A program made the position numbers and the translations under genes. A DNA stretch of 64,000 bases from Candidatus Latescibacterota bacterium. Its GTDB lineage: Bacteria; Latescibacterota; UBA2968; GCA-2709665. The stretch covers positions 672,001-736,000 of the forward strand of contig CBDDDZ010000004.1 in assembly GCA_965226795.1 (NCBI GenBank), given 5' to 3'. Position 1 is the first letter of the stretch. The number at the start of each line of letters is the position of its first letter. The notes under the pieces are model-generated. The model was not told where the DNA came from, searched no databases, and saw only the letters and a list, made by a program, of their open reading frames with translations. This document shows, piece by piece, positions 51,975 through 61,315 of this stretch.

Positions 51975-52937
51975 TCATGTCCCCGAGATGGCGTCGATCA
52001 TCTCCATCGTCTTCACCGCGTCGTCCAGACTACAGGCCGGGAACGGAAGTGCGCCTCCATTCTGGACCCATCTCAAGAACGTGCGATCCTGCTGATAAAA
52101 TCCTGGTTTGTAGCGGCGATCAATGTCATTCCCTTCGACGTTCTCCGGCTGTCCGCCTCTGCGTCTCAAGGTTGCGGCTTGCCCAAGAGCGGACGTGAAG
52201 GTAACCCCATTGCCGCGCACTTCCACGCGGTGCCCTCCCGGAGCGAACCAGTCCATAGAGGCACGCCCGACAGCCCCGCCTGTGAAGGTCAACAGCGCCG
52301 AACAGCAGTCCGGCATGGGACCTTCCACAGTATGGTGCATCGGCTGGACGCTCATCACGTCACCGCCGAAGAATCGCAACAGGTCCAAGGCGTGGATGCC
52401 GTTTGCTACGCTCCAGCGTTTCAGGACCTTTTCAGGAAATTTCGGGTTTTCCCGGACCCGCTGGATATCTTCGTGGGCGTCCACAGTGACGCTTTGTACC
52501 GGCCCGGATTCGAGGATCAGCTCCCTGCCCTTGAGAAGCGTGGAATAGAACCGCCGATTTACGCCCACCATCGCCGGCGTACCCACCGCTCGCGCCAGAT
52601 CGGCCAGCGCACGGGTCTGGCACGTATAGAGGCCAGGAGGCTTTTCCAGAAAGGTCGGGATACCGGACCGAATGAAGTCTGCGGCGACCGCAGCGACCTG
52701 GAGGACACTCACGAGAACGAAAACGGCGTCGGGCCGATCCCCTTCCAGCAGGCTCTCGTGCAAGTTCAGGCGATTCGACACGCCGAACCGCGCTCCTGTC
52801 TCTTCCAGAACGCGGGGGTTGCTGTCCACAAGCGTCGTCACACACCCCTCGCGAAGGTCGGTGAGTACTTTCAGGTGCCTCTGCGCTATGTTTCCGGCTC
52901 CGACTACCGCAATGTTCAGCATTTCGTCCTGTTCCAT
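51975..52937 (-). CDS. Gfo/Idh/MocA oxidoreductase
   Basis: VVGAGNIA, EKP, G-x-NRRF and IH-x-x-D. Confidence 0.9.
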   Translation of the reverse strand: MEQDEMLNIAVVGAGNIAQRHLKVLTDLREGCVTTLVDSNPRVLEETGARFGVSNRLNLHESLLEGDRPDAVFVLVSVLQVAAVAADFIRSGIPTFLEKPPGLYTCQTRALADLARAVGTPAMVGVNRRFYSTLLKGRELILESGPVQSVTVDAHEDIQRVRENPKFPEKVLKRWSVANGIHALDLLRFFGGDVMSVQPMHHTVEGPMPDCCSALLTFTGGAVGRASMDWFAPGGHRVEVRGNGVTFTSALGQAATLRRRGGQPENVEGNDIDRRYKPGFYQQDRTFLRWVQNGGALPFPACSLDDAVKTMEMIDAISGT

Positions 52938-52981
52938 GTAAGCATTGCACGCCTTGAAGTAACGAATCTGTTCCTCTGGGC

Positions 52982-53390
52982 TCAGATCTCTCGTTTTGAG
53001 CCCGTCGGCAAGGGGTGATACTTCACCTCAACTTCCACATCTGTGACTCTCAGCGGTCTCACCAAATCGTCCGGTCGCTCCACCAGCGGATCTCCAAACG
53101 GTTCGCCCCCTGATGTGGCCGCACCCGCTGCAAGTCAAATATCAGCCACATGCTCTGGTACGGAGCGACCTTATAGCCGTATTCCCGGCGGCATATCTCC
53201 CCTTGCAGCGACTGGCCGTTGAGCGCGATTTCCAAGCGGTCGTCCGAGACCAGATCGACGATCTTGATCCGCAAGAGCACCTGACTGACGCGGCCTTCTT
53301 GCGCGTCGTCGACCAAGTAAAAGGGAATGGTATGCTGTGCCCGGTCGTCGGCTGCGATCTCCTCCGGCAGCGGGTGACCTGTTGTTCCAT
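52982..53390 (-). pseudogene. C-terminal gene remnant, 5'-truncated, with a 1-bp frameshift
   Basis: HPLP...IPFYLVDD...LNG...GANRLEI continues in another frame as LVERPDDLVRPLRVTDVEVEVKY; no start upstream. Confidence 0.6.
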
Positions 53391-53630
53391 TGGTTTATCG
53401 GAACAACAGGGGACGCCTGTTTCTGACGTCCGAGGCTGCTGGTGAGCGGCGCGTCTTCTGCCGCGAACAAACCCCCAGCCCCCAGACCGGACGCGCCGTC
53501 GTTGCATTATTCGGGGCGACCGCCGCGCGCCCCTACGAAGAACAGGCATTCGCGAATCGAAATCCGATGGGCGAAGGGGGGTCTTCTTACGTCTCCCGTC
53601 TCCCCTCTCCCCGCTCTTTGCTGATTGCTT

Positions 53631-53790
53631 TTATTCCTTTTCATCTTCGATTCGATGTTGTCGATCGATGGATTCGAAGAGGGATCTGACGTCGAAAAAG
53701 CCGCCGATGCCGACGATAACGGTGACCACTGCGAAGATTAGCAGTCCGATGAGGAGCACGGCGCCCGCACAATGGCTTGTCGAGCTATTG
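53631..53790 (-). pseudogene. small membrane-protein remnant
   Basis: hydrophobic VLLIGLLIFAVVTVIVGIGGFFD with a charged tail and no clear start; abuts the REP. Confidence 0.4.
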
Positions 53791-53807
53791 AGGAAGCGTG
53801 TCTGAAG

Positions 53808-54109
53808 GTGGGGCAGACATTCCTGTCTGCCCTTCTCATCGTCCTTCTGTCGTAATACAGACAGAAAAACGGCTTGCACCGCCTTTATGGAGCCAATAGC
53901 CCTGGCGGTTCTTGATCCGCAGCATACGCGCATTCTGTAAGCCGCGGCGTTTGCCCCGGGGGATTGCGTCATCGAGACGAAAGGTGATCCAATAGATAGC
54001 GCCGTCCTTTTTCCAGTGTGGGAGACGGCGGCGAATCGTTGGGTTCCCGGAGACAGGATTCAGAGATTTTGGTCTAAAATACGTGAGCAGACAGGAATGT
54101 CTGCTCCAC
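53808..54109 (-). mobile_element. internally deleted RAYT (REP-associated Y1 tyrosine transposase) remnant flanked by inverted GTGG-REPs
   Basis: REPs gtggggcagacattcctgtctgccc (53808-53832) and inverted gtggagcagacattcctgtctgctc (54085-54109); between them RRRLPHW...GAIYWITFRL-x-D-x-x-P. Confidence 0.7.
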
Positions 54110-54178
54110 CCTTTCAAGCTTTTGCGTAACCATAATAAAGCGAGTTGAATAAAGAAACGACCGTATGGATCATTCAGA

Positions 54179-54796
54179 TTACGGCCATGTAGGGCGTTCC
54201 ATCGAAAAAGATCCGGTGACGCACGCATAGTCCAGGTACCCGAGACGCCCCACCGGTTTCAGGGCTACGGTGTCGACAAGGCCATCCTTTATAGCCCGGT
54301 CGGCAATATGGATGCCAACCACCTGACCGAAAACAACCGTGTTCGGATCGTCCTGATTGTCCGTTGGCAGATCCACGGTGCGGGTATGGATACACTCCAG
54401 ATGCACCGGGCTTTCCGCCACACGGGGAGGCTTTACAAGCATTGAAGGCGCCTGTGTGACGCCCGCGTATTCGAACTCGTTGACGTTTCCGGGTGCAGGT
54501 ACAGCGGTCGCGTTCATCTGTGTTCGAAGCTCCCAGGTGGCGAGGTTTACCACGAATTCGCCCGTTTCCTGCGCGTTCTTTATGGAATCCTTCAATCCTC
54601 CGTGGGTGTGTGTGGTTGTGGCGGCGAACATGACCTGCGGCGGGGTATAGGCCACGGCGTTAAAGAACGAGTACGGGGCCAGGTTGAGCGTTCCCTGCGC
54701 GTCTATCGACGAAATCCATCCTATCGGTCTCGGCACAACGATGGCGTTGAAGGGATCGCGACGCAGGCCGTGGTGTTCGGACGTCCTGTAAAACAT
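54179..54796 (-). CDS. flavin reductase family protein (DIM6/NTAB)
   Basis: PRPIGWIS, NLAPYSFF, KDS-x-x-N, EFVVN and RLG-x-x-x-Y. Confidence 0.9.
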   Translation of the reverse strand: MFYRTSEHHGLRRDPFNAIVVPRPIGWISSIDAQGTLNLAPYSFFNAVAYTPPQVMFAATTTHTHGGLKDSIKNAQETGEFVVNLATWELRTQMNATAVPAPGNVNEFEYAGVTQAPSMLVKPPRVAESPVHLECIHTRTVDLPTDNQDDPNTVVFGQVVGIHIADRAIKDGLVDTVALKPVGRLGYLDYACVTGSFSMERPTWP

Positions 54797-54928
54797 GCTC
54801 GGGGCCTCCCTTTCCGGAGGTTATGCCGCGTTCTCTGTAGATTGTACCGTGGATGTGCAGTCAACAGCCACCGCGAGGTCCATATTCCGTTACGAACCCA
54901 CCCGATCCTCCGGGGCAGGACACCAGGC

Positions 54929-55930
54929 CTATTTCCACTTGAACACAACACCCAGTGCATCACTCGGATCGTCGGCGAGCATCGTATAGATTTCCTCGCA
55001 CTGTTCCGGCTCCGCCACGTGGGTGATGAGGTCTTCAACGGGTAATTTGCCCTCTCCCATCAGGCGCATCACCAGCCGGCGGTCCCGTTCCTTTGCCCAT
55101 CGGTAGTAGATGTGATCGGCCTCCGGCGTTTTGGGCTGGTGGGCGCCCAGGATGCTGACTTCCCTAAGATGCACATCGGCCAGGAAATCCATATCGACGG
55201 TGCCGCGCGGGGAACCCAGCGCAACCACACGGCCAGCCGTGCACGCAAGCCGGACGGCGGTGGGATATACCGAGGGCTTTCCCGTCGCTTCGATAACGAC
55301 GTTGGCGCCGTCATCCACGCAGTGTCGGCCAACCGCCTCCCGGATGTCGTCCACATCGCCGGGATTGATGCAAAGGTCGATGCCGCGGCTTCGCGCCTTG
55401 TCCAGACGAAAGTCGTCGAGATCGATAGCGATTGCCGGCAGGGCGCCGGAGAGTCCCGCAAGCGTCGACGCGAGTTGGCCTACAATCCCCAGGCCGATAA
55501 CGACGACAACCTCGCCCAATTCGATGCGCGCCACCCGGATTCCGTGGATGGCGATAGCGCCCATGACCATGAAAGCGGCGGCTTCGGACGACACGGAATC
55601 CGGAACTCTCTGGTGGAAGGACCTGGGGCCGGAGAGGACGCAGTGGCTGGCGTGGTTTCCCTGTCCGGCTACGCGATCGCCAGGACGGATGCCCTCAACG
55701 TCCTTGCCGACTTCCAGGACCGTTCCGACGTTGCAATAGCCGGTGGCGCGTGGAAAACGAACAGGGTTTCCGGGTTCGCCTCCGTGGGTCCAGCCGTGGA
55801 TCTCCGTTCCGACGCTGACGGCGGTGTACTGGTTTTCGATAAGGATACCGTCATCTGGTACTGACCCCGTCTCGAAGGACGCCAGTTCCATCCGACGGAT
55901 ACCGGGAATGAGGAAACGTGTGGCTTTCAT
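54929..55930 (-). CDS. MDR-family dehydrogenase lacking the canonical Zn-binding Cys
   Basis: S-x-GTE, GY-x-x-VG, G-x-G-x-VG and VIEATG. Confidence 0.85.
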   Translation of the reverse strand: MKATRFLIPGIRRMELASFETGSVPDDGILIENQYTAVSVGTEIHGWTHGGEPGNPVRFPRATGYCNVGTVLEVGKDVEGIRPGDRVAGQGNHASHCVLSGPRSFHQRVPDSVSSEAAAFMVMGAIAIHGIRVARIELGEVVVVIGLGIVGQLASTLAGLSGALPAIAIDLDDFRLDKARSRGIDLCINPGDVDDIREAVGRHCVDDGANVVIEATGKPSVYPTAVRLACTAGRVVALGSPRGTVDMDFLADVHLREVSILGAHQPKTPEADHIYYRWAKERDRRLVMRLMGEGKLPVEDLITHVAEPEQCEEIYTMLADDPSDALGVVFKWK

Positions 55931-56000
55931 CGGGAAGACCTTTCAGGTTGTTCGACGGCGGAATGGAGCGGGTAATCGAGACAGACGCCGGGCGTGGTCT

Positions 56001-57038
56001 CTACGCCTGCCCAAGGTCCAGGGTCTCCCGGAAGAGTCGAAGGAAGTTGCCGCCCCAGACTTTCCGGATTTCGTTTTCGGAAAGGCCGCGCGCGAGCATG
56101 GCGCGGGTGAGATGCACGAGCTTTGAGACGTTCTTGACGACGGGTGTGAGCGAACCCATGCCGTCGTAGTCGGACCCGATGGCGACGTGGTCGATACCGA
56201 CCAGGTCCGCCACGTAACAGATATGGTCGACCAGCCGGTCGACGGACGGATTCCCCGGATCGATGAAACCTGGCACGAAGGCGATGCCCATCACCCCGCC
56301 TCCGCCGGCCAGGGCCTTAAGTTGATCGTCAGTAAGGCAGCGCCAGTGGTTGCAGACGGAAAAAACCGCGGTGTGGGTCATCGTCACCGGGAGCGAAGAT
56401 CGTTCAAGAACCTGGAAGAAAGCCCTGTCGTTAACGTGGGCCAGGTCGGTGATGATACCCAGCCGGTTGCTCTCCCGGAGCACGGCTTTGCCGAAGTCCG
56501 TCAGACCGCTGGCGTTCCTGCGTTCACGGTCACGGTCGTCAGGCGTGCACGGTCCAAATGGACTCCTGCTGCCCTGAAGGTAGGCCGGGGCGTCCCCGCC
56601 TTCGCCGTGGGTAATCCCCACGCAGCGCACACCCAGGCGGAAATAGAGACGTAATACATCCATCTCCCCTTCCAGCCAACGACCCGCGCCTTCGATTGTG
56701 AGAAGGATGCCGACTCTGCCGGATTCTTTCGCCCGTTCAACGTCCTGTGATGAGAGCACCAGCATCAGGTCGTCGGGATAACGATCCACCGAAGCCAGGG
56801 TTTGCTCGAGGGTAACCCGAACATTTGCCGTGGGACCGTTGCCGACCACGAAGAAACCGGCGTCGAATCCGCCTTCCCCCATCCGGAGAATGTCGATATG
56901 ATACGCATCGTCCGGTTTTTTCAGGTCCATCGGGCGCTCGCCGCGGTGCACATGTTCCACGGGCGTGTCGTTGTGTCCGTCGACGATAAGGCAGCGATGG
57001 TGGACTGCCTGCGCTTCTTCAAGGGTGATGTCCGGCAT
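56001..57038 (-). CDS. membrane dipeptidase family (M19)
   Basis: DGHND, EG, D-x-AH, TH and HV-x-IGSDYDG. Confidence 0.9.
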   Translation of the reverse strand: MPDITLEEAQAVHHRCLIVDGHNDTPVEHVHRGERPMDLKKPDDAYHIDILRMGEGGFDAGFFVVGNGPTANVRVTLEQTLASVDRYPDDLMLVLSSQDVERAKESGRVGILLTIEGAGRWLEGEMDVLRLYFRLGVRCVGITHGEGGDAPAYLQGSRSPFGPCTPDDRDRERRNASGLTDFGKAVLRESNRLGIITDLAHVNDRAFFQVLERSSLPVTMTHTAVFSVCNHWRCLTDDQLKALAGGGGVMGIAFVPGFIDPGNPSVDRLVDHICYVADLVGIDHVAIGSDYDGMGSLTPVVKNVSKLVHLTRAMLARGLSENEIRKVWGGNFLRLFRETLDLGQA

Positions 57039-57109
57039 GGGAATTGGGTCCTCTGCTGTGGGATAACGGTGTGCCCTTGCGGGTAGGTATGATGCGCTCT
57101 CAGGTCGGT

Positions 57110-58432
57110 CTACGGAGGGTCGACCGGTACGTTCTGGTTCTTGCGGACCAGGGGATCGTATGTAAATCCGTCGGACCGTTTTTCGAACTCGGCGCGCACC
57201 TGTTTCATGTTCTCCGGGCTCCGGCAGAGGTCAACTGCGGTTCCTGCGAAGACTTTGGCGGTCTGCTGGATCGCATGCTCGGCGAAAGGCAGGGCGGCCT
57301 GCGCGGCCATTTCCCGGTGATGGCCAGGCGTTCCCTTTGCATAACAGACCATCTGGAAGCGTCCCAGAGGGGCCAGCCAGGAAACGTTGTCTTCGTCGGA
57401 GGAGCCCCGGCCCTGCGAGCCGCCGCCCTTGCCGATCTTCGTATTGAACCCCTTTTTGTAGCCCAGGGCTTCCACGCGCTTCACGTCAGCTTCCGTCGGT
57501 TCGGGCGGTCCGAAGAGTTTCAGATTTTTTCGAACAATCTCACACATTGACTTGTTGGGCAGACGCGGGTACACGGCGGTGATACGCGACCATTTCATCC
57601 TCGTGTCCGTGGCTCCGGCGGCGCCCCGGGCGCAGGCGGTGAGGCGTTCACGCACTTCGTCTACCTGCGCGCGGTCCTTGCCCCGTACGAAGTACCAGAT
57701 TTTGGCATAGGCCGGCACCACGTTGGGGGCGTCGCCTCCGTTGCGAATGACGGAATGAATCCTGACGTTTTCGGGTACATGCTCCCGGAGGTAGTTGGCG
57801 GCAATATCCGTGAGCATCACCCCGTCCAGGGCGCTGCGGCCCCGGTGAGCCCACGCGCCGTGGGCGGTACGGCCGAAGAATTCGTAAACGACGGAGTCCA
57901 GCGACGATCCCCCGAAATTGTTGACGCCGGAAGAACTCCCCGGATGCCAGGCGAGGCAGGCGTCCAGGTCCCGAAACGCGCCGTCGCGAGCCATATACAC
58001 TTTGCCCGCCAGGGTTTCCTCCGCCGGACAGCCGTAGTAGACGATTTTGCCCGATGTTCCGGTTGATTCGAGGATTTTTGCAGCGGCGACCGCACCCACG
58101 GCCGGGGCAACGCCCAGCAGATTGTGGCCTCAGCCATGCCCCCAGTCACCTTCCTCGGGACCGCAGTTCGGGAGCGCGTCGTATTCCCCCAGCATCCCGA
58201 TCGCCGGTTCTCCGTTGCCCCGGGTCGCTCGAAATGCCGTGGGGATTTTCTTGAAAGAGAATTCGACCTCGAAGCCGTGCGAAGCCAGGTAGTCCGCGAC
58301 CGCTCCCGAGGATTTGACCTCCCGGAAGGGCCGTTCCGCCCAGGCGTGCACCCGCCTGGAAAGGTCCACGGCGCGTTTCGACTCATCCGCTACGGTGCGA
58401 TCGATGAGGTCCTTTTTTTCTTTCGAGGTCAT
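57110..58432 (-). CDS. M20 amidohydrolase (AbgB-like) with in-frame UGA at codon 101; candidate selenoprotein
   Basis: ORFs 58130-58432 and 57110-58099 are in the same frame: EYDALP...GHG*GHNLLG...GCPAEE...WHP...GRSALD; TGA at 58130-58132 replaces the motif Cys. Confidence 0.85.
58096..58127 (-). promoter_or_regulatory. candidate bacterial SECIS element
   Basis: 11 nt after the UGA: GCUGGGC-GUU-GCCC(C)GGC stem-loop with apical G at +19; lower CCAC/GUGG stem. Confidence 0.55.
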
Positions 58433-58704
58433 GACATATCCCTTCTGTAAAAAAACGCCGGTCCACGGTTACTGGAATTGCCGCGTTGGATCGTCAACTG
58501 TTCCGGATCGATCTTCGCCCCGAGTTTTCGAACGGTACATCTTGCAGTCCGTTGATAAAGTCGCTCTGCAGGCGGGACCGAGTCATTGTGGCCGAAGACA
58601 AGGCGCGCGACCGAGGCGAATCGGGGGATTCGAGGAGCGAGCGCAACGCCGTAAGTCGGCCACAAGGGCCGGACGCAGCCCGGATGGACTTTTCCAACGG
58701 GCTG

Positions 58705-59793
58705 CTAGGGATTAACGATGGCATCAACGACCGCGTCGGCCACCTCCGGAGTCGCAGCTGCCCCACCCAGGTCCGCCGGATGGTTTGCCGGATGGACAAG
58801 CGTTCGATCGACGGCGCGGTCAATGGTCTGCGAGGCGGCGGCGGCTTCCGGATCGTTATGGCGGCTGCCCAGCCAGGACAGCATCATCCCCGCGGAGAGG
58901 ATCTGGGCTATGGGGTTGGCGATGCCCTTCCCGGCTATATCGGGGGCGGTACCGTGGGAAGGCTGGAAGACGCCGTAACGATCGCCTACGTCGGCCGAGG
59001 GCGCCATACCCATCCCGCCGATAGTAGCTGCGGCCAGGTCCGAAATGATGTCCCCGAACATATTTTCGGCAACGACAACGTCGTACCACGCGGGGTTGCG
59101 TAACTGGTACACGGTGAAGGCGTCCACGTAGGCATAATCCCGTTCGATGTCGGGATAGGATTCTGCAACCTCGTCGTAGATCTGCCTGAAAAAGGCCATG
59201 CTTTTCAGAATGTTGGCCTTGTCCACCGAGGTGACGCGACTCTTACCGTCGGCGGGCGCCCCCTTCCGTTGCTTCGCGATTTCAAAGGCGTACCGTACAA
59301 TCCGCTCGGTACCGGCGCGGGTGATGACCATATTGTCGACGGCGAGACTGTCGCCGAGGCGAACCCCGGCGCCGCGGGAGGCGTAAAGGCCTTCGGTATT
59401 CTCGCGCATAATGACGTAGTCGAGCGGCGGATTCCCTTCGAGAAGCGGAGGCACGCCGCGATATTTTTTGATGGGCCGGATCCCGGCGTAAAGGTCGAGT
59501 ACGAAGCGCAGTGTCAGTTGCGGAGCGATTTCCGTGCCGTCCGGAAATCGGATATCGGGATCGCCCGCGGAACCGAAAAGGACGGCATCGGCCTGCTTGC
59601 ATGCATCGAGCGTGGGATCGGGCAGGTCATTACCGGTTTCGGCGTAACACCTGGCGCCCACCGGGTGTTCCGAAAAGGCGAATCGGAGATCTGGAAGCGG
59701 CTCCTCGAGCGCCAGAAGGACTTTGAGTGCTTCCGCGACCACTTCCGGGCCGACGCCGTCTCCGGGGAGTACGGCGATGTTGTACGTTGGCAT
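58705..59793 (-). CDS. isocitrate/isopropylmalate/tartrate dehydrogenase family
   Basis: GDG-x-GPE, RENTEG-x-Y, DKAN, NMFGDI-x-SD and HGTAPDIAGKG-x-ANP. Confidence 0.92.
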   Translation of the reverse strand: MPTYNIAVLPGDGVGPEVVAEALKVLLALEEPLPDLRFAFSEHPVGARCYAETGNDLPDPTLDACKQADAVLFGSAGDPDIRFPDGTEIAPQLTLRFVLDLYAGIRPIKKYRGVPPLLEGNPPLDYVIMRENTEGLYASRGAGVRLGDSLAVDNMVITRAGTERIVRYAFEIAKQRKGAPADGKSRVTSVDKANILKSMAFFRQIYDEVAESYPDIERDYAYVDAFTVYQLRNPAWYDVVVAENMFGDIISDLAAATIGGMGMAPSADVGDRYGVFQPSHGTAPDIAGKGIANPIAQILSAGMMLSWLGSRHNDPEAAAASQTIDRAVDRTLVHPANHPADLGGAAATPEVADAVVDAIVNP

Positions 59794-59844
59794 GCACGCC
59801 CTCTCAAGGTATGTTGAACGTTGAAAACAGCGAAACGCGGGCAT

Positions 59845-59915
59845 TTCGACAAGCTTGCTTCGACAAGCTCAGCACAGGCAATGACCACGCTTCGACAGGC
59901 TCGTTTCGACAGGCC
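59845..59915 (+). repeat. four copies of TTCGACA(A/G)GC
   Basis: copies at 59845, 59859, 59891 and 59905, forming two pairs with 14-bp spacing. Confidence 0.75.
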
Positions 59916-59976
59916 GTTTCAACCGTTGCCAAACTGACAGTTTGCGCAACCTGATCGAGCGCCTTCACCTCCCCAT

Positions 59977-60022
59977 CACCCCCGCCTCCGGGGGAGTCAC
60001 CGCCAAGGGTGGCGGTGGAGGG
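59977..60022 (+). repeat. double-hairpin REP-like element
   Basis: ccccc/ggggg and caccgcca/tggcggtg stems. Confidence 0.45.
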
Positions 60023-60051
60023 CCTCCATATCGTCAGCGGCGGCGGGTAAC

Positions 60052-61194
60052 CTAGCGATCGTGGATCCCGATACGGAATCCACCTTCGGATTTCACGCAA
60101 CGTTCCAGCATGTCCGGCTCGACGTCTAATCCCGCGCCGGGCGTATCGGGTACGATCAGCTTGCCGTTTCGCATCTGCCATCCGTCCAGGACGATGCCCG
60201 GCATTTCCGCGGGAGCCGCTTCCAGGAGGCTGAAGTTGGGAATGGCGGCGGCGAAGTGGGCGTGCGCGTAGCGTTCGATGATACTCCCCCAGCTATGTGG
60301 CGCACACTTCGCGCCCCATAGCTGGATACGATCCGCGGTGGCTTTCCACCAGGTCAGTCCCATGTATCGGAAGTCGTGTTGCACAACGTCGATCCATCCA
60401 TTTTCGACCATATCGAAGAAGTATGGCGGAGGCGGCCCGGATTCACCGTCGGCCACGAGCGTGTTGTAGCCTCTCTGTTCGATGGCTTCCTTGAAGGCCG
60501 GGTTGAACGCCCGGTCTTCGGGAAACGGTTCTTCGAACCAATAGACCCCCACGCCGCGGCAGCGTTCGAGAATATCCAGAGCGATATTGAGCGTGGTTCC
60601 GTTGTTGGCGTCAACGAGGATCTTCGCGTCCGGTCCCGCTGCTTCCCGGACGGCGTGGATCACCAGCACGTCCCTGTCCGTTCCTTCCCGGACGGGCATC
60701 CAACGCGCGCCACGGCCGATTTTAATTTTGAAATTGCGATAGCCGTGGTTGTATCCGGTACGGACCTCTTCGTGAAAGATGCGCCGGGCCTGGTCGTCGG
60801 TTGCTCCCAAATCGTCGATATAGATGGAGCCGTCATAGAGTTCCACTTCGCGGGAGCCACGCCCTCCCAGGAGTTGATAAAGAGGCGCCCGTTCACATCT
60901 GGCGGCCAGATCCCACAGGGGCAGGTCGATGGCCGCACCGGCCCCCTTTGACCCGTGGGGAAATTCAAACAGGTCCGCGGGTCGCATTCCGAGTAGCGAT
61001 TCGGCGCGCTCCCTGTCAAGGGAAGACCAGCCGATACCGACAGCGCCGCCCTCGGTACAGATGCGCACAACCGGGTCGGTGACGGCCTGGCCATGCGCTC
61101 CGATACGGGCATTCAAGCCGATACTGCGCGGACGTTTCCCCCGGAGGACAACCTTTTCGATCTTGACGATGGGGTCGGAAAAAGTGCTGGACAT
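60052..61194 (-). CDS. mandelate racemase/muconate lactonizing enzyme (enolase superfamily)
   Basis: D-x-x-LWDL-x-AR, K-x-K, DAN, EEP, GE and PH motifs. Confidence 0.88.
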   Translation of the reverse strand: MSSTFSDPIVKIEKVVLRGKRPRSIGLNARIGAHGQAVTDPVVRICTEGGAVGIGWSSLDRERAESLLGMRPADLFEFPHGSKGAGAAIDLPLWDLAARCERAPLYQLLGGRGSREVELYDGSIYIDDLGATDDQARRIFHEEVRTGYNHGYRNFKIKIGRGARWMPVREGTDRDVLVIHAVREAAGPDAKILVDANNGTTLNIALDILERCRGVGVYWFEEPFPEDRAFNPAFKEAIEQRGYNTLVADGESGPPPPYFFDMVENGWIDVVQHDFRYMGLTWWKATADRIQLWGAKCAPHSWGSIIERYAHAHFAAAIPNFSLLEAAPAEMPGIVLDGWQMRNGKLIVPDTPGAGLDVEPDMLERCVKSEGGFRIGIHDR

Positions 61195-61315
61195 CGTGGG
61201 AACCCAGAAGCCAGGATGGATGCGCGGGGAGGTAAAGTAAACCAAAAATCGACGATTGGAAATCAAAAAAGCCGGTGTCGCAATGCCCTCCGTTTTTGCA
61301 CGCTGGTATTAGGTC

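Follow-up and report, generated by a model that had tools for sequence, protein, structure and literature searches.

Two open reading frames on the minus strand of a Candidatus Latescibacterota genome, 58130-58432 (100 aa) and 57110-58099 (329 aa), raise the question of whether the UGA at their junction ends a protein or is read as selenocysteine (Sec). Positions refer to the window, the whole stretch of 64,000 nucleotides that was analysed. The original prediction held that the two frames are one, and translation bears this out: the minus-strand frame 58432-57110 runs for 440 codons, lies in phase with both pieces and closes with TAG, and codon 101 (TGA, 58132-58130) is the one stop inside it. 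The peptide around codon 101 reads D-W-G-H-G-*-G-H-N-L. A purine-rich stretch resembling a ribosome binding site, GAAGGGA (58439..58445, minus strand), lies 6 nt 5' of the ATG. It is highly probable that the gene encodes a full-length 440-aa M20D amidohydrolase in which UGA 101 specifies Sec, a residue predicted to bridge two catalytic metal ions. If so, a metallo-amidohydrolase joins the selenoproteome, with Sec at the predicted bridging position of a non-redox two-metal site.

The read-through protein and its predicted metal site

Domain models and fold assign the read-through coding sequence (57110..58432, minus strand) to the M20D amidohydrolases of the HmrA/PM20D2/AbgB-like type. TIGR01891 scores 184.3 bits against a cut-off of 153.75, and the M20 catalytic and dimerisation domains are both recognised (PF01546, 25.7 with a cut-off of 24.6; PF07687, 30.4 with a cut-off of 21). 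The AlphaFold model, built with Cys at 101 and no metals, reaches a pLDDT of 96.3. Its best Foldseek match is HmrA (3RAM; E 5e-36, TM 0.82), and other matches include PM20D2 (7YH4, TM 0.79) and CsAga (6SLF, TM 0.69). All three share the fold and the H-x-C-G-H, PAEE, HP and C-terminal His motifs with our protein, which differs from them in the UGA at the Cys position, in an extra cysteine, Cys90, and in a structural-alignment identity of 18-26%. When HmrA and human PM20D2 are aligned with the frame, the stop falls on the Cys of GHACGHN, placing the putative Sec (58130..58132, minus strand) at the Cys of H-x-C-G-H. At JGI, several Cys homologues of 56-72% identity carry the automatic label 'aminobenzoyl-glutamate utilization protein B' (AbgB-like); neither abgA nor abgT occurs among the neighbours scanned, where dehydrogenases and an M19 dipeptidase are found instead.

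The original prediction described the other M20D motifs of the read-through product as intact, and they are: with codon 101 of the query read as C, position 101 and His103, Glu138, Glu139, His163 and His371 are invariant among 117 aligned homologues. The predicted metal ligands, all on the minus strand, are His103 (58124..58126, aligned to HmrA GHACGHN), His163 of the WHP motif (57944..57946) and His371 (57320..57322, which matches the C-terminal His of HmrA and PM20D2 in the alignment). Glu138-Glu139 of PAEE (58016..58021, aligned to HmrA and PM20D2) are the predicted general base and metal ligand. These roles are presumably those of M20/HmrA enzymology in general, from which we carry them over. 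A pair of Zn or Mn ions would be held by the selenolate at 101 together with His103, Glu139, His163 and His371. Glu138 would activate a water molecule that cleaves the amide bond of the substrate, likely an N-acyl-amino acid or a dipeptide. A general catalytic mechanism for M20-type enzymes has been set out alongside CsAga, in which two zinc ions are joined by a bridging Cys (PMC11511702). After this model, the Sec101 selenolate quite probably bridges the two metals as well. Sec has a lower pKa and resists irreversible oxidation (PMC13188914), and the most likely benefit of Sec101 is predicted to be an oxidation-resistant, always-anionic bridging ligand.

A different use of selenium could involve Cys90 (58163..58165, minus strand), an additional cysteine that is specific to the subfamily and precedes the UGA by 11 residues. 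It is present in 60/60 TGA rows and 20/20 close Cys homologues, and in 0/30 distant ones. Its occurrence in all 80 close homologues and the redox nature of most selenoproteins (PMC13188914) would both fit a redox switch acting instead of, or besides, the static bridge, for example a selenenylsulfide with Cys90 that releases the metal and turns the enzyme off. We consider such a switch improbable: Cys90 also accompanies Cys101 in the 20 close Cys forms and so predates Sec, every other predicted metal ligand is intact, and C-x10-U is absent among the motifs in the catalogue (PMC13188914). Cys90 itself sits in the loop after EYDALP and marks an uncharacterised M20D subfamily of Latescibacterota, Planctomycetota, Armatimonadota and Lentisphaerota.

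Selenocysteine machinery and the reading of UGA

The source genome contains selA, selB, selC and selD. The genes for SelA (486 bits), SelB (370 bits) and tRNA-Sec (73.6 bits, UCA anticodon) are adjacent on contig C5, while selD (362 bits) lies on contig C4 and carries an in-frame TGA of its own. The usual Sec signature is also seen in fdhA, a SelW/Rdx protein gene and a thioredoxin-like U-x-x-C gene. UGA is normally a stop in this genome, since RF2 is present (512 bits) and TGA, the commonest stop, terminates 431 of the 861 ORFs of at least 500 aa. Among relatives, every one of the 55 genomes with the TGA orthologue has at least one sel gene; selB was found in 47 of the 49 TGA genomes of the order and in 5/5 others tested, and the remaining three have selA or selD. 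This co-occurrence discriminates little, because selB is present in 56 of 61 relatives overall, regardless of codon 101. The searches did not find selA or selB in the TGA-bearing genome G032 (91% complete), where a TGA-bearing selD is present, nor selA, selB or selD in G059 (86% complete), which has a TGC orthologue of 67% identity.

Some bacteria have routes that insert Cys or Trp at UGA, and Cys at this position is functional in thousands of homologues. A UCA-reading tRNA-Cys, sulfur in the Sec pathway or near-cognate suppression could each give a product without selenium. We regard this as very unlikely, given that tRNA-Sec is the only UCA tRNA found, that selA and selD are intact, that Trp occupies column 101 in none of the homologues examined, and that a UGA with a constrained RNA element, described below, would bring no evident benefit if it served merely to insert Cys. 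The proposal that the UGA is decoded as Sec is instead supported by three observations: TGA is conserved where homologues have Cys, the Sec genes are present, and the sequence downstream is frozen. SelB-dependent insertion of Sec at codon 101 is, on this comparative evidence, very likely.

Codon 101 and the downstream RNA in related genomes

A search of 168 genomes of the phylum recovered an orthologue with one TGA in 55 genomes, all of the same class, and among the 53 genomes of the order all 49 full-length orthologues have TGA at codon 101. In the other six of the 55, from another family, codon 101 was confirmed as the position. Those close relatives that carry a name belong to Ca. Latescibacterota, although some bear the label Gemmatimonadota; the TGA orthologues of the 55 genomes are 68-100% identical. 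Planctomycetota, Kiritimatiellota and Armatimonadota are among the sources of the Cys forms. A first tally of codon 101 gave 46 TGA, 47 TGC and 14 TGT in 107 loci, a set with duplicates, for which reason the later counts use the genome set only. In the tree, all 50 non-TGA rows have Cys at 101, versus 60 TGA rows. A metagenome pattern scan covering half of the collection returned at least 119 loci; among the matches listed, 16 are M20 genes, with 69-78% identity to the query and a hairpin region that differs from it only in minor loop variants. The other 103 shared just the motif, and no Sec form from outside the TGA clade was among the matches listed. An H-A-U-G-H-D variant of the motif was sought in the 168 phylum genomes as well; its 5 pattern matches, set against 3 in the control, include none similar to the query, and the variant is unconfirmed.

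Public annotations assume that the UGA is a true stop, leaving a 100-aa piece and a 329-aa piece that starts from GTG at 58099. Indeed, 15 of the 120 database matches listed are pieces of 294-336 aa that begin after the UGA, and NCBI labels some of them 'peptidase dimerization domain-containing protein'. The 10 codons between UGA and GTG, however, hold the invariant His103 and the conserved G-H-N-L-L-G, missing from both pieces, and none of the 55 genomes has a second stop or an indel in the gene. There is next to no probability left for a true stop, and the truncated pieces in public databases imply wrong annotation of the family throughout a bacterial class. A private nonsense mutation, an assembly error or a genome-wide recoding of UGA, conceivable for an assembly from an uncultured source, is effectively refuted by the same codon in 55 separately assembled genomes and 16 metagenome loci, by the conservation of both halves of the protein (mean identity 0.67 and 0.79), and by RF2 and the prevalence of TGA stops.

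The history of the Sec form was followed on a tree in which residue 101 was set to Cys in all rows. With the genome set, the 60 TGA sequences fall on one side of a branch with an SH-aLRT of 99, within the Cys forms. When 50 database proteins are added, four full-length Cys forms (P0004, P0006, P0009 and P0013) nest in the TGA clade. A clean single origin of the Sec form thus holds for the genome set and fails for the larger one. The nested proteins point either to Sec-to-Cys reversions, a possible explanation for all four, or to several gains; they also indicate that Sec is not essential. Judging from the sequences, Sec seems to have been derived from Cys within this lineage and to exchange with it.

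The original prediction also drew a single SECIS-like hairpin (+12..+29; 58101..58118, minus strand) beginning 11 nt after the UGA, where the sequence reads GCUGGGC-GUU-GCCCCGGC. The sequence, the 11-nt spacing and the loop G at +19 (58111) stand. The conserved core of this hairpin 1, GGGC-GUU-GCCC (58105-58115, minus strand), pairs in 60/60 TGA sequences, and its loop is GUU in 53 of them, GUA in 6 and ACA in 1. What does not stand is the completeness of the element: the outer G12-C29 pair forms in just 9 of 60, and a second hairpin at +26..+43 (58087..58104, minus strand) equals or exceeds hairpin 1 in conservation and is more stable. Hairpin 2 has 7 bp, of which six pair in 60/60 sequences and one in 59/60, and a median energy of -9.4 kcal/mol; its loop, RGGU (58094-58097), lies at +33. 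RNAalifold chooses hairpin 2 over hairpin 1, and its pair C30-G39 links two frozen synonymous sites. The sole orthologue of the 60 that lacks a G in the loop of hairpin 1, L046 of G050 (codon 108; loop ACA), has an intact hairpin 2 and offers a natural test of the two loops.

Synonymous changes were counted on a tree from which codons 98-118 had been left out; its 60 sequences come from 55 genomes and 5 metagenome contigs. The seven four-fold sites in codons 107-114 show 0, 5, 0, 4, 0, 1 and 0 changes, 10 in total. The median is 12 changes per four-fold site (117 sites), and not one of the 107 four-fold sites outside codons 100-115 has three or fewer. The sequence is frozen at +15..+42, and the conserved element reaches +43. 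A functional RNA element 3' of the UGA is strongly indicated by these frozen synonymous sites, and close orthologues retain both the TGA and the sequence behind it. Hairpin 1 accounts for a part of the constraint.

The shape of the element is less sharply defined by folding. A two-hairpin model is 99.7% paired in TGA rows versus 55.0% in 20 Cys rows, with both structures derived from the same sequences on which pairing was scored. For +12..+48, 44 of the 60 sequences have the joint two-hairpin structure as their minimum-energy fold. The source genome is not among them; its own minimum-energy fold of this stretch lacks hairpin 1. Covariation is weak: two-sided change is confined to one pair, in 3 of 32 distinct rows, a level reached in 21 of 500 shuffles. 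Folding energy was dropped as evidence for a SECIS, the z-scores of four windows (0.73, -0.03, -0.23 and 0.95) being not significant. Also set aside was a single long hairpin joining +1..+11 with +33..+42: it is 99.1% paired in the order set but has zero two-sided changes, and 10 of 60 sequences break its pair 3-40. It represents a possible alternative fold.

The published bSECIS consensus describes a loop of 3-9 nt with a G in its first two positions, 16-37 nt from the UGA, and an energy of -7.5 or lower (PMC13188914). In our own implementation, all 60 TGA rows pass this rule, but so do half of the Cys orthologues (10/20), together with 88 of 600 random Cys codons. If the loop is confined to +21 or nearer, 24 of the 60 TGA rows pass. 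The loops of other genes in the source genome lie at +19/20 (FdhA), +18/19 (SelD) and +22 (the thioredoxin-like gene). Hairpin 1 resembles the E. coli fdhF-type SECIS in its 11-14 nt spacer and in the G-U of its small loop at +19, features shared by the fdhA and selD of the source genome. The M20D element is unlike that type in that a second conserved hairpin, with a G-G-U loop, directly follows, and both may form together. SelB with Sec-tRNA would bind a G-U loop shortly after the UGA and outcompete RF2; the loop bound could be that of hairpin 1 (+19, the register of the genome's other selenoprotein genes) or that of hairpin 2 (+33).

Known selenoproteins, gene neighbourhood and further candidates

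The original prediction knew of no selenoproteins in the M20D family, and the sources covered agree. The terms M20, amidohydrolase, peptidase, hydrolase and AbgB are absent from the text of a 2026 review, including its table of 119 prokaryotic selenoprotein families (PMC13188914). Neither the main text of the BSepDB paper (PMC13326102) nor the text and four supplements of the deep-Sep paper (PMC12013277) mentions an M20 selenoprotein. No seleno model is among the NCBIfam matches of the read-through protein, and no report of a Sec-containing M20 enzyme appeared in the open-access literature searched. The gene is a well-supported candidate for a new selenoprotein family, combining a known fold with a known recoding route in a way absent from the lists checked.

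UshA is a metallophosphoesterase, which makes its family a possible precedent for Sec in a hydrolase fold. UshA-like and glutamine-amidotransferase-like proteins and SaoX/SaoB/SaoP are predicted selenoproteins with no obvious redox label, and are unrelated to M20 (PMC13188914). The expectation that selenoproteins are mostly redox enzymes agrees with the catalogue, but the M20D enzyme is not the sole apparent exception, since the entries also include ABC-transporter subunits besides the UshA-like and glutamine-amidotransferase-like families (PMC13188914). Parallels at the metal are FdhA (Mo/W) and the [NiFeSe] hydrogenases, where Sec takes the place of a metal-binding Cys (PMC13188914). These share with the M20D gene the SelA/B/C/D route and a SECIS inside the coding region. 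They are redox enzymes, whereas the prediction for the M20D site is a dinuclear centre for hydrolysis, bridged by Sec.

Why Sec persists although Cys homologues abound has been described as an open question (PMC13188914). Here there are Sec and Cys forms that share 67-76% identity, which makes the question testable on a hydrolase with simple assays; the natural Cys twins, about 70% identical, allow a direct comparison of what selenium contributes outside redox chemistry. Tentatively, and with somewhat less confidence than doubt, we suggest that the selenolate-bridged two-metal hydrolytic centre may be a novelty in enzymology. Selenium may have been retained throughout a bacterial class for its effect on catalysis or on resistance to oxidants, Cys90 perhaps acting as partner, and a tandem two-hairpin SECIS may serve to decode it.

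Flanks of 1-4 kb were compared for the genes around the M20D locus, at 53 TGA and 20 Cys loci; clusters were named from the members scanned, and the counts are lower bounds. The most conserved neighbour is a Zn-dependent (MDR) dehydrogenase (54929..55930, minus strand; PF00107 and PF08240), present at no fewer than 41 of the 53 TGA loci. An isocitrate/isopropylmalate dehydrogenase family gene lies upstream (58705..59844, minus strand; PF00180; at least 25/53) and an M19 dipeptidase family gene downstream (56001..57038, minus strand; PF01244; at least 16/53). None of the three was found at the 20 Cys loci or at the six loci of the third family, and the 20 Cys loci offered no conserved neighbours as a clue to the substrate. 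The gene content suggests a catabolic pathway without naming its substrate, and the enzyme would probably act in small-molecule catabolism together with the neighbouring dehydrogenases. In the window itself, 51975-61266 (minus strand) forms a catabolic-type run: a Gfo/Idh/MocA oxidoreductase, a flavin reductase-like protein, the Zn dehydrogenase, the M19 dipeptidase, the M20D gene, the isocitrate/isopropylmalate-family dehydrogenase and an enolase-superfamily enzyme.

A de novo scan of the source genome for selenoproteins gave 410 candidates, of which 21 remained after a hairpin filter; the scan is noisy and its results are leads only. One lead, outside the window at G000:C2:254496-255725 (plus strand; loci L292 and L300), is a 410-aa read-through with G-N-P-L-G-C-V-U-N-N-G at codon 82, for which Pfam and NCBIfam gave no match. 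Across the order it was matched 44 times, in 40 of the 53 genomes, and 43 of these matches have a TGA inside; in 12/12 loci checked the TGA is at codon 82 and is followed by a conserved hairpin with the loop CGUGA at +19. From these sequences, its product is a probable second uncatalogued selenoprotein. Two shorter genes lie on contig C5. The one at G000:C5:1421522 (plus strand; L290:386-1057) has an in-frame TGA in L-L-S-P-T-U-P-V-C, a U-x-x-C motif that makes it thioredoxin-like, and a hairpin loop AGUUG at +22, with no match in Pfam or NCBIfam. The other, at G000:C5:46475 (minus strand; L293:376-609), encodes a SelW/Rdx-family protein with a C-A-A-U motif (TIGR02174, PF10262).
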